From an uncultured Pseudomonadota bacterium (lineage in GTDB: Bacteria; Pseudomonadota; Gammaproteobacteria; Steroidobacterales; Steroidobacteraceae), in contig CAVQJH010000015.1 in NCBI GenBank assembly GCA_963712795.1, forward strand, positions 577,543 through 641,542: a stretch of 64,000 nucleotides of DNA, given 5' to 3'. Numbering within the stretch: the stretch's first letter is position 1; each line of letters starts with the position of its first letter. The position numbers were made by a program, and so were the translations under genes. Below are positions 51,440 through 56,379 of the stretch, piece by piece. Below the pieces are notes generated by a model, which worked only from the letters and a program-made list of their open reading frames with translations, made no database searches and had not been told where the DNA came from.

Positions 51440-53128
51440 TTAGTGGAAGGCCTGCGCCGCGTAACCCACGCCGAGATAGTAAATCTCGTTGTGTGTGTCG
51501 AGCGGAGCCGGCAAAGTAAAGGGAGGCGAGATGGCGGGATCAGCTGCTTTCTTTGCCGATAAGTAGTCGTCCGAGAGCCGCAACCAGACGATGAGCCCTG
51601 CCTTTTTCTCGACCACCTGGCCGGCCGCCCCGCTCTTGGCGTCGGCGGCGAGGCAAGGCACCAGGCCATTGACCAGCGGCGCCGCGATTCCGGAGGGCGT
51701 GTAAACGGCGCACACGGAGCGTCCGCCCGACTGCTGCATCCAGCTGAGCCAAGCCGCCGCGGCAGGCGAGCGCGGAGTCGGAGACCAGACCCGGCCCGGC
51801 TGGGCGACGCCGTCGATGATCCACAGGCCGTGCCAGTTCTGGGTGAAGTATGGGGTGCTGCCGCCGAAAAGCGGCGCGCCGAAGTAGGCGCTCCGCTGGG
51901 CGTTCGCGGTGGCACCGCCACCGCGCAATGCGGCGAGCGTCGGAATCCGGGTCACATCGTACATCGTCGCCACGGCCGCGCTGTGGCCGAGTAACGTGGA
52001 GGTGCAGTTTGTGGGAGGGCCTGCTTCGTCCGCGCTAGTCCACGGTGCGTTGTCTGGCCGCTGAAAGAGGGTGTTGCCGTCCTTGAATGCGAGCTGGCCG
52101 CCGGAGCTACCGTTCCTCAGCGACATCGACTGCGAGAAGAGGAACCGCAGTACCTCCCCCACCAGGCGCCCGAGTCCCTCCTGGCAGTTGAAGGGCTCAC
52201 GCACGAAGTCTCCGGCAATCGTGGCCGGGATCGGCGTGATCACCACCGGTCCCAAGGTGGTGCCGAAGAGGTCCGAGCGCGATCCATAGATCTGGTAGGC
52301 CACTCCAAAGGCCTGACCGGACAACAACGTGCGGTTCGAGCCCAGATCGACGTAGGGCTGGACAAAGTCGCTGACGCTCAGCGGCCCGGTTTTCTGGCTC
52401 GAGCTGCCCCGGACGACGCTCCCGTAAGGGTAGGCGCCCGCGAACGGGAACCGATCCGTCGGATAGTAAGGAGACAGGGGATTGGGGGTGACCTGCAGCA
52501 CAACTGCCGGAGTCAGCCCCACGTTGAACGGAGCCCACACGCCAATCAGAAACCTGAGACTCCCAAAGCCCGGGGGGTCGCCGTATTCGAGCAAGACCCA
52601 CGAGCCGCACTTGTCGAGCGGGACGTTGGTGTCGACGAAATTAAAGCGATCCCAGCCCTTCCCATTGACGTTGGCCGCAACGCCGTTCTTCAACGAGCGC
52701 CAGGTCTTGTTCAGTACCCAGATGCCACGATAGTAGGTGCCATTGCCGATCAGCGCGCCGCCGGCATTGAAGCCGCGATCCGCCGGACTGGATTCCGACA
52801 ACTGCACGCCCGGTGCGAAGCGGACCCTCCCGGGGCGAACCGTGACCGGGACCAGCTGCGAGCCCGTGGAGAGCGAGAGGGACGGATTGTTGGTCGTCCA
52901 GGCGTTGCTCTTGTCGTGGTTGATCTGGGCAACTTCATCGTAATAGCCTGCGGCATTCACGGTCAGGGTCACGAGCGCGGGCCCCTGATCGGGAATCAGC
53001 ACGTCGTGAGGCGCCACCCCGGGGGTGAGCGTCGTCGGCCCTTTACCGAGGTCGAGCGAAGCTGCGACCGTGGCATTGCGCAGCGCAGCGCCGCAGACGT
53101 TCTCTACGCTGATCCGCAGACGGATCAA
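51440..53128 (-). CDS. large hypothetical protein (~563 aa), third gene of uncharacterised operon; putative TTG start overlapping upstream stop (TTGA)
   Basis: Long high-GC3 ORF. Sequence is Gly/Pro/aromatic-rich and non-repetitive (…GTYYRGIWVLNKTWRSLKNG…WVLLEYGDPPGFGSLRFLIGVWAPFNVG…). The longest ATG/GTG-extended ORF (to 53194) would overlap the upstream gene by ~70 nt, so a TTG at 53126-53128 is proposed. No signal peptide, no known motifs. Confidence 0.5.
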   Translation of the reverse strand: MIRLRISVENVCGAALRNATVAASLDLGKGPTTLTPGVAPHDVLIPDQGPALVTLTVNAAGYYDEVAQINHDKSNAWTTNNPSLSLSTGSQLVPVTVRPGRVRFAPGVQLSESSPADRGFNAGGALIGNGTYYRGIWVLNKTWRSLKNGVAANVNGKGWDRFNFVDTNVPLDKCGSWVLLEYGDPPGFGSLRFLIGVWAPFNVGLTPAVVLQVTPNPLSPYYPTDRFPFAGAYPYGSVVRGSSSQKTGPLSVSDFVQPYVDLGSNRTLLSGQAFGVAYQIYGSRSDLFGTTLGPVVITPIPATIAGDFVREPFNCQEGLGRLVGEVLRFLFSQSMSLRNGSSGGQLAFKDGNTLFQRPDNAPWTSADEAGPPTNCTSTLLGHSAAVATMYDVTRIPTLAALRGGGATANAQRSAYFGAPLFGGSTPYFTQNWHGLWIIDGVAQPGRVWSPTPRSPAAAAWLSWMQQSGGRSVCAVYTPSGIAAPLVNGLVPCLAADAKSGAAGQVVEKKAGLIVWLRLSDDYLSAKKAADPAISPPFTLPAPLDTHNEIYYLGVGYAAQAFH

Positions 53129-55776: not shown

Positions 55777-56379
55777 TCAGATCGCGTACACGCGGCAGCC
55801 CGGCGGGAGGGCCCAGTTCACGACGGTATCCGGTCCCTGCCACCCAGCCCCGCTGCTGGTGTCCAGGGTGGCGGCGTTCAGCGCGCCAGCTTCATCCACC
55901 GCCAGGGCGACAAAGACAGTGGTGCTCGCCTGAATCGCCGTGACATACGCTCCGGGCGCGAGTACCGCGCCCCCGACGGTGTCCATGCCCTGCCAGCCGT
56001 CCGTGGTCGTCGCATCAAGAGTGGCGACATTTAGCACGCCGTTGCAATCGATCGCGAGAGCGCAAAATTCGGTTGTAGTGAGCTTCAGGAGCGAAACCGA
56101 GGACCCGGGCACAAGATTGCCGTTGCCCACGGTCACCAACCCCTGCCATCCCGTGGTCTGCGCCAGATCCAAGGTCGCGACATTCAGCATGCCATGGCGG
56201 TCGATGAGCAACGCCCCGAGGACAGAGACACTCTGCTGGAACACCGCTACCGGTGAGCCCGGCACCAGACAGGCCGTACCCACCACGTCCGGGCCCGTCC
56301 ACGTGAACCCGGCGTCCGGATTCAACGAGCAGGCGTTGAGAAGTCCGTTTCGATCGACACTGAGTGCCACGTGCAGCAT
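55777..56379 (-). CDS. tandem-repeat protein (4 x ~48-aa GWQG repeats; beta-propeller/lectin-like candidate), first gene of uncharacterised operon
   Basis: Four repeats align as ALxIDxxGxLNvATLDxxxxxGWQGxxTVxxxxLxPGsxV: VALSVDRNGLLNACSLNPDAGFTWTGPD… / ALLIDRHGMLNVATLDLAQTTGWQGLVTV… / ALAIDCNGVLNVATLDATTTDGWQGMDTV… / ALAVDEAGALNAATLDTSSGAGWQGPDTV…. No signal peptide. Stop is 27 nt before the next gene's GTG. Confidence 0.55.
   Translation of the reverse strand: MLHVALSVDRNGLLNACSLNPDAGFTWTGPDVVGTACLVPGSPVAVFQQSVSVLGALLIDRHGMLNVATLDLAQTTGWQGLVTVGNGNLVPGSSVSLLKLTTTEFCALAIDCNGVLNVATLDATTTDGWQGMDTVGGAVLAPGAYVTAIQASTTVFVALAVDEAGALNAATLDTSSGAGWQGPDTVVNWALPPGCRVYAI

Follow-up and report, generated by a model that had tools for sequence, protein, structure and literature searches.

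The window analysed here is a 64,000 nt stretch of contig CAVQJH010000015.1 (positions 577,543 to 641,542 of the forward strand; assembly GCA_963712795.1) from an uncultured member of the Steroidobacteraceae, and it contains three consecutive minus-strand genes, here named A, B and C, which code for a lectin-repeat protein, a large protein with no recognisable family and a predicted esterase or lipase (Table 1). The open reading frame (ORF) table and independent public gene calls for identical DNA (locus L001) both place the three genes where the initial annotation had put them, the public calls giving the same 200, 874 and 562 aa products and a 4 nt overlap of B and C; this overlap is also present in the public calls for a second locus (L005). 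The other architectural features described earlier are likewise borne out by the sequence. A 27 nt gap with a ribosome binding site separates A from the GTG start of B, and C begins at a TTG that overlaps the stop codon of B, an arrangement consistent with translational coupling; the longest possible ORF for gene C would begin at 53194. The initial annotation proposed a comparison of base composition with the flanks, and this brings out no anomaly, the G+C content at third codon positions (GC3) of A, B and C (0.78–0.81) being the same as that of neighbouring chromosomal genes. No terminator-like site lies directly downstream of the C stop at 51440, and no sigma-70-like promoter was found in the gap upstream of A (56380–57547). 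This gap, which extends to the HTH_17 gene, is ~1.17 kb long with a G+C content (GC) of 0.579 and is without a convincing ORF or Rfam match; the operon promoter or regulatory region is presumably within it.

Protein B does lack a recognisable family, as first annotated. Searches against Pfam, NCBIfam, PADLOC and PHROGs gave noise only, no PDB sequence was matched by either the single sequence or a 35-sequence profile, and no description of the family was found in the literature. A first search returned at least 496 close, full-length homologues at 50–81% identity, from Stellaceae, Kofleriaceae, cyanobacteria (on a Tolypothrix plasmid), Nitrospira, Mycolicibacterium and the fungus Lophiotrema nucula. 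An exhaustive profile search expands this to 3,470, 2,569 and 622 representative clusters (defined at 50% identity) at E≤1e-3, 1e-10 and 1e-30, respectively, many of which have only profile positions ~140–755 in common. A pattern-based scan that covered 185,579 species, each represented by a single genome, located 104 relatives, in Streptomyces, Nocardia, Nonomuraea, Kitasatospora, Rhodococcus, Amycolatopsis, Paenibacillus and cyanobacteria, as well as in Acidobacteriota, Gemmatimonadota, Eremiobacterota, Planctomycetota and several proteobacterial classes. B proteins are 41–60% identical across more than 10 bacterial phyla, and a fungus also has one. B constitutes a superfamily that has not been described before, and no relative of it is detectable among solved structures.

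The B gene is found on a Tolypothrix/Aulosira plasmid, beside integrases and IS elements and, in the window, in a mobilisable island; a haloarchaeal plasmid has a short match to B. The L. nucula homologue is intron-less, ~50% identical to B and located on a 1.3 Mb scaffold (ML977319.1; locus L013, 5501–10700), with a divergently transcribed C-like alpha/beta-hydrolase gene beside it in which a GFSAG motif, the Asp and the His are conserved. This two-gene pair looks like a cross-kingdom transfer, and because it is present in a fungus the pair does not depend on a bacterial secretion machine. More distant relatives of the B core include a 788 aa protein on pB of Sinorhizobium meliloti (L094, 4072–8718), followed by a gene for a 746 aa hypothetical protein, and a 1,268 aa protein on Chryseobacterium sp. 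plasmid NZ_CP044508.1 (L095, 944–11057), which is preceded by genes for an M15 peptidase and a patatin-like phospholipase and followed by one for a 713 aa hypothetical protein. These two loci suggest a broader set of modules related to B.

The AlphaFold model of B is mediocre (mean predicted local distance difference test [pLDDT] 66.7; predicted template modelling score [pTM] 0.44) and a Foldseek search with it returned nothing at E≤1e-3. It consists of an N-terminal helical part, long helices at residues 532–596, an alpha/beta region and a C-terminal beta domain. The most conserved segment, residues 170–365, contains long beta-strands (172–198, 203–213 and 336–365) around an S/T/Q/N-rich stretch (210–321) that AlphaFold leaves unplaced (pLDDT 24–41). 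The S/T-rich N-terminal region had initially been described as low complexity; it is instead part of this conserved segment and not a disordered spacer. Residues 253–263, the first strand of the candidate hairpin listed in Table 1, lie within it and exceed the rest of the protein in beta-amphipathic moment (z 3.2). The SG-x-YG hairpin recurs in distant relatives, including a similar element, GFGLSLSGKYGPTVEFES, in the Sinorhizobium protein; that it could act as a membrane-insertion element is speculative.

Two further regions of B differ in how they vary. The beta-sandwich at residues 421–540, well modelled over 427–530, is the most variable part (conservation 0.29–0.43 among 81 homologues), and its fold matches are limited to FlhE, small viral jelly rolls and carbohydrate-binding modules (CBMs). 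It also tracks the class of the adjacent partner gene most closely, with a ratio of within-class to between-class identity of 2.14 as against 1.14–1.5 for other regions, a ratio that is confounded by phylogeny. At the C-terminus, some homologues have a tandem duplication of profile positions 765–839, and 25 of 47 distant members (drawn from the superfamily proteins P0193–P0297) contain the Pfam domain T2SSG, which corresponds to the globular part of the type II secretion major pseudopilin GspG (best E 8e-30), near the C-terminus and, by consensus, directly before the conserved final strand. Fusions at the N-terminus add GH18 (~375 aa), PG_binding_1 or LysM domains; PKD and DUF5648 each occur in single family members. 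The domain types fused to B are extracytoplasmic and carbohydrate- or wall-binding. B itself contains no Walker A/NTPase, HExxH, GxSxG or HKD motif.

The initial annotation treated the trio of genes as the conserved unit, but the unit that recurs is B plus an exchangeable downstream gene belonging to one of at least 14 partner families. A same-strand ORF begins no more than 400 nt downstream of B in 86 of 94 loci; 66 of these 86 ORFs sort into 14 unrelated multi-member families, several with a median gap to B of only 4–35 nt. Recognisable partners include PLD (phospholipase D; six loci), an Rv2525c-like glycoside hydrolase (four), PT-TG pre-toxin (two) and Tlde1 (two), together with single instances of a phospholipase C (PLC; Phosphoesterase plus PLipase_C_C), an amidase and an eCIS_core protein, and those with recognisable domains are predicted to attack envelopes. 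Family A4 bears the clan GH-A glycosidase signature NEP...E, and the weak matches of its profile in the PDB are all to GH5 and GH10 enzymes; another family has a GYSRSG motif, and a further one is Gly/Ala-rich and possibly membrane-spanning. Profiles of families A5, A6 and A7 gave nothing informative against the PDB. The partners are swapped relative to B: one partner class accompanies B proteins that are only 57–66% identical to each other, and the B proteins of L030 and L032 are 85% identical yet have different partners. Genes 3′ of B in the Tolypothrix, Mycolicibacterium and Nitrospira loci are unrelated to C.

The full trio does co-occur elsewhere, as the initial annotation had suggested looking for. 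It is present on independent contigs as A-B-C in L005, as A-IS-B-C in L002 and as B-A-C in L012 and L014, the last two at 58–59% B identity. In L002, the nearest relative of metagenomic origin, a DDE_3 transposase (8442–9491) sits between the lectin gene (7754–8341) and B (10001–12616), with all three genes intact. A-type lectin genes are confined to loci with C-type partners (the window/L001, L002, L005, L012 and L014), in two gene orders, and are found in none of ~75 others. A and C are accessory genes of a single sub-lineage. Within ±8 kb of the B loci the gene directly downstream was the only conserved neighbour, no immunity-like gene is conserved after the partners across the partner families, and no shared N- or C-terminal docking or targeting motif was seen among these families. 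In the window there is no ORF between the end of C (51440) and the end of the convergent SPFH gene (51273).

Protein C is predicted to be a serine esterase or lipase with an alpha/beta-hydrolase fold and a Ser-Asp-His triad. Its predicted model is confident (pLDDT 86, pTM 0.92), and the best fold matches are feruloyl, acetyl-xylan and glucuronoyl esterases and the wall-degrading esterase LipA. The earlier view that all three proteins lack a catalytic signature is wrong for C, which has a G-H-S-A-A elbow and an invariant Asp and His: Ser383, Asp439 and His546 are unchanged in an alignment of 18 sequences (19 homologues were found) and occupy the canonical order and places. The nucleophile Ser is kept in the C-like proteins of L012, L014 and L016 and in the fungal homologue, with GFSAG replacing GHSAA in the distant proteins (L012, L016 and the fungus); the triad Asp and His are also kept in L016 and the fungus. 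C matches nothing in Pfam or NCBIfam (E≤1) or among PDB sequences, including by profile, and is not a member by sequence of any curated esterase family (CE1, Esterase, cutinase etc.). Because no curated sequence family matches, C is a new family within a known fold. The alpha/beta-hydrolases to which it can be likened (the XynZ and XynY feruloyl esterase domains, 1jt2 and 1gkk; Xanthomonas oryzae LipA, 3h2g; and antigen 85/mycolyltransferases) have only 8–12% sequence identity with it and give no sequence-library match. C further differs from known alpha/beta-hydrolases in its GHSAA elbow, which replaces GxSxG, in an additional N-terminal beta-sandwich of ~110 residues (with a weak CarboxypepD_reg-like match in one homologue) and in ~150 further residues.

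Protein A consists of four repeats that fill its 200 aa, with the pattern ...VDxxGxLNxAxLD...GWQGP...LxPGS.... The number of repeats is as first annotated, but the period is 51 aa and not ~48: self-comparison gives 69 identities at an offset of 51 and 5–21 at all other offsets from 30 to 69. The description of the head gene as lectin- or propeller-like also holds, in that all 15 members of the A family match the NCBIfam model NF052349 of BP39L-family lectins (best E 1.9e-31) and nine of the 15 match NF052348 (beta_propeller_lectin); ~18 A-like proteins of 200 aa are present in a large protein collection. The match of A itself (E 4e-17) covers only profile positions 208–321 of 335 and scores 62.1 bits, below the curated cut-off of 400 bits. 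No PDB chain matched the single sequence or the family profile at E≤1, in a copy of the PDB in which the presence of the BP39L chain was unchecked. BP39L is an L-fucose- and mannose-binding propeller lectin of class PropLec7C, described among seven-bladed beta-propeller lectins (PMC11186620). The repeats of A match the model of the family that includes BP39L (Burkholderia pseudomallei) and CV39L (Chromobacterium violaceum), and share a Trp-containing motif with it (GWQGP in A); in contrast to the seven-bladed propeller of ~335 aa, A, a putative sugar-binding protein, has four 51 aa blades in 200 aa. Since A scores far below the cut-off, has four blades per chain rather than seven and matches no solved chain, we regard it as a relative of BP39L-type propeller lectins at the level of the repeat and outside the family proper, and as a new four-blade variant akin to a known seven-blade lectin family. 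Closure of a propeller would require A to oligomerise or to dock on another protein.

Taken together, carbohydrate- or wall-binding types (lectin, LysM, peptidoglycan-binding, CBM-like sandwich and PKD) and lipid- or wall-attacking enzymes are arranged around an invariant B. The reading that we favour, tentatively and as a possibility, is that these genes encode an extracellular, glycan-targeted complex of envelope-attacking enzymes carried on mobile DNA, with B as a new type of scaffold or carrier. B would probably be an oligomeric, coiled-coil-containing protein acting outside the cytoplasm on the target cell surface, and the gene coupled to it would supply an exchangeable membrane- or wall-attacking hydrolase, here the esterase or lipase C. 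In the sub-lineage with C-type partners the four-blade lectin A would be a third subunit, steering the complex to a glycan receptor. Since no Sec or Tat signal is seen, release of the products would probably be non-classical or depend on lysis, and since no immunity gene is seen, the targets probably have an envelope unlike that of the producer, as would fungi, other eukaryotes or unrelated bacteria. We infer the physical association of A, B and C, their place outside the cell, their target and any pore-forming or translocating activity of B, which may simply position the enzyme or may also breach a membrane. The evidence does not settle which of the toxin, adhesion or defence roles initially suggested for the locus applies, and tends to favour an attack on envelopes outside the cell.

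Several observations count against this reading. The proposed interaction of A, B and C is drawn from gene context, and the mediocre model of B and its lack of an informative PDB likeness mean that the scaffold role, too, is argued from context. Several partner families were defined from crudely called ORFs in high-GC DNA. No conservation of secretion, lysis or holin genes is seen near B (±8 kb), and neither A, B and C nor the partner families have signal peptides visible by eye, so that an intracellular role is possible. The second strand of the candidate hairpin is weak (z below 1), and ordinary strands reach z 2.5–2.9.

A bolder version, which we consider doubtful, is that B is a new delivery or lytic machine of ~880 aa that is independent of secretion systems and has the architecture of an AB-type toxin across bacteria and fungi. 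The conserved core (170–365), with its hairpin (253–276), would then refold to insert into or breach the target envelope; the jelly-roll, the C-terminal beta or GspG-like domain, the N-terminal GH18, LysM or peptidoglycan-binding domains and the stand-alone lectin would choose the target; and the co-translated esterase, PLD, PLC, Tlde1 or glycosidase would do the damage. Binary AB toxins of the anthrax protective antigen type, and Tc toxins with chitinases, combine separate enzyme genes with a large, similarly sized B component that is signal-less or multi-domain. B resembles these in having a variable, putatively receptor-binding domain and an S/T-rich segment with long strands on either side, and its association with GH18/chitinase recalls Yen-Tc. 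It differs in that it has no Pfam match to Binary_toxB, TcA, TcB, TcC, VRP1 or RHS, and no PDB sequence or fold match.

An intracellular conflict or anti-phage abortive infection system, in which B senses infection and frees or activates the adjacent effector so that the infected cell dies, is unlikely to be the explanation, even though defence systems usually pair a large conserved protein with an interchangeable effector. The effector would be the esterase or lipase C here and PLD, PLC, the possibly membrane-spanning family or a peptidase at other loci. In favour of such a system, signal peptides and immunity genes are not seen, and the distribution is sporadic, driven by horizontal gene transfer and associated with plasmids and islands. 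Loci of B have as neighbours a type I restriction-modification system and a PIN protein (L006), an Eco57I-like methylase and GmrSD (L012) and an AcrVA2-like gene (L002), and the window contains a PDC-S71-matching ORF; the restriction-modification and GmrSD neighbours and PDC-S71 fit a defence island as well as they do the complex that we favour. However, no PADLOC model matches A, B or C (PADLOC-DB v2, no match at E≤1) and B lacks motifs of a sensor type, those of NTPases and nucleases included. The recognisable partners lack TIR, SIR2 and HEPN domains and any evident nuclease (a PLD-fold nuclease is possible) and are lipid- or wall-directed instead. LysM, PG_binding_1, GH18, PKD, GspG-like and lectin modules are extracytoplasmic types that would be odd in a cytosolic sensor, and the pair is kept in a fungus.

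We consider it similarly improbable that B is a carbohydrate-binding scaffold on which a lectin is assembled with a carbohydrate esterase or glycosidase into a non-antagonistic complex for polysaccharide or wall processing, serving either to remodel the producer's own envelope or to obtain nutrients from plant or fungal polymers. Such a role would suit the carbohydrate esterases that are the best fold matches of C, the GH-A-like, Rv2525c-like and GH18 modules that occur as partners or fusions, the CBM-like sandwich of B, the lectin homology of A and the hosts, which are mainly soil saprophytes and filamentous bacteria. It accommodates less well the PLD, phospholipase C, Tlde1, PT-TG and eCIS_core partners, which are typical effector or toxin modules and not nutrient-acquisition enzymes, or the lack of visible signal peptides, which are usual on secreted carbohydrate-active enzymes. 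The module is moreover rare and patchy (the 104 relatives in 185,579 species genomes) and resides on mobile DNA, unlike housekeeping wall enzymes, and the conservation of B across phyla is unusual for a substrate-binding scaffold. A self-assembling phage-derived, encapsulin-like or tail-like particle, with B as structural protein and the adjacent enzyme as packaged or displayed cargo, is highly improbable: packing between subunits is suggested by the long beta-hairpins and by strands at the very N- and C-termini that are strictly conserved, and the variable adjacent gene recalls encapsulin operons, but no B homologue is present in 50,697 phage genomes and a pattern scan of IMG/VR (2.9 million viral contigs) likewise gave none, so that a phage origin was rejected, B gave no HK97 or tail-tube fold, no other phage-like genes are conserved near B, and partner termini share no targeting motif.

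The logic of the complex that we favour, a conserved carrier with swappable effectors and lectins, resembles by analogy that of polymorphic toxins, VgrG-effector pairs and umbrella particles. As in polymorphic toxin systems and VgrG/PAAR-effector pairs, a conserved module that spreads by horizontal transfer is combined with an exchangeable effector repertoire (at least 14 families) that includes known toxin domains, namely PLD, PT-TG, Tlde1, PLC, eCIS_core and amidase, and N-terminal LysM or peptidoglycan-binding adhesion domains are added, as described by Zhang et al. 2012 (PMC3482391). Unlike in those systems, the effector is a separate gene, B being conserved to its last residue with no variable C-terminal toxin domain; no immunity gene is conserved after the partners; no known trafficking domain (there being no Pfam match in B) or linked secretion system is present (type V, VI or VII secretion systems [T5SS, T6SS, T7SS], RHS or LXG); and B is unrelated to any described carrier.

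The umbrella toxin particles of Streptomyces consist of the lectin UmbA, UmbB and the toxin UmbC, with diversified lectins conferring target specificity and a large scaffold carrying a polymorphic toxin (PMC11062931, PMC13274773). They have in common with the B loci a multi-protein logic of lectin, scaffold and toxin and are common in actinomycetes, which also have many B genes. B matches no Pfam or NCBIfam model, and it is by model matching rather than by direct sequence comparison that it is set apart from the Umb proteins. The lectin here differs in being a stand-alone four-blade protein and the toxins in being separate envelope hydrolases, and the range of B extends to proteobacteria, cyanobacteria, Firmicutes and a fungus.

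For the B superfamily no name, domain model, structure or literature was found, and B is a candidate new chassis for antagonism or defence. Knowledge of its function would annotate thousands of hypothetical genes and might uncover a novel route by which enzymes reach target cells when no dedicated secretion system is involved. It would also make available lytic enzymes and lectins that are modular by nature and of interest to biotechnology. A and C would be informative alone, as a four-blade version of a seven-blade lectin and as a new esterase family.

Table 1. Features of the A-B-C operon and its surroundings, in coordinates of the window
Feature	Coordinates	Strand	Description	Basis
tRNA-Thr(TGT)	49712-49785
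SPFH gene	50107-51273		Convergent with C
Gene C	51440-53128	minus	562 aa from TTG; N-terminal beta-sandwich (~residues 1-110), then alpha/beta-hydrolase domain	ORF table
C His546 codon	51491-51493	minus	Predicted catalytic base, before last helix (545-560)
C Asp439 codon	51812-51814	minus	Predicted catalytic acid, after strand 432-438
C Ser383 codon	51980-51982	minus	Predicted nucleophile, G-H-S-A-A between strand 376-381 and helix 383-394
Gene B	53125-55749	minus	874 aa, GTG start	ORF table
TTGA	53125-53128	minus	B stop overlapping C TTG start	Direct sequence reading
B residues 761-874	53128-53469	minus	C-terminal beta domain, strictly conserved final strand (EWFEYTPTSG.DIAVTSNLATIA)
B residues 421-540	54130-54489	minus	Jelly-roll/CBM-like beta-sandwich, pLDDT 84-93
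B residues 170-365	54655-55242	minus	Most conserved segment, column conservation 0.66-0.90 (81 homologues)
B residues 253-276	54922-54993	minus	Candidate amphipathic beta-hairpin, SG-x-YG turn (QFNINATVSGSYGFVSASVATSFG)
Shine-Dalgarno AAGGGAGG	55758-55765	minus	Within 27 nt A-B spacer, 8 nt 5′ of B GTG	Direct sequence reading
Gene A	55777-56379	minus	200 aa, ATG start	ORF table
HTH_17 gene	57548-57913		Excisionase-like
NikA/MobC-like gene	58091-58684
Relaxase, MobA/VirD2-type	58677-59706	plus	Two overlapping frames: 58677-59351, relaxase domain; 58846-59706, no Pfam match
PDC-S71-matching ORF	59926-61737	minus	603 aa, full-length match, no Pfam match	PADLOC, E 1.3e-108
IS3	62807-63978

The surroundings of the operon are as initially described, with the tRNA-Thr, SPFH, excisionase-like, mobC-like, relaxase and IS3 features all found, the relaxase in fragments, and the proposed setting in a mobile island is borne out by the neighbouring mobilisation genes. 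The split relaxase is probably a frameshifted pseudogene, so that the island is perhaps no longer mobilisable. No repeat of the 3′ end of tRNA-Thr was found in 49600–64000, and the borders of the island are therefore undefined within the window. The PDC-S71-matching ORF, which is ~3.5 kb away from gene A and has the broken relaxase on one side and IS3 on the other, is clearly foreign in composition (GC 0.516 and GC3 0.548, versus ~0.65 and ~0.8 nearby). Beyond two tRNAs the window contains no Rfam family. The second of these, tRNA-Cys(GCA) at 16620–16690, is followed by ~6 kb of lower GC (0.55–0.62 versus ~0.67 elsewhere; 16620–23000), a region that may be a second integrated element.

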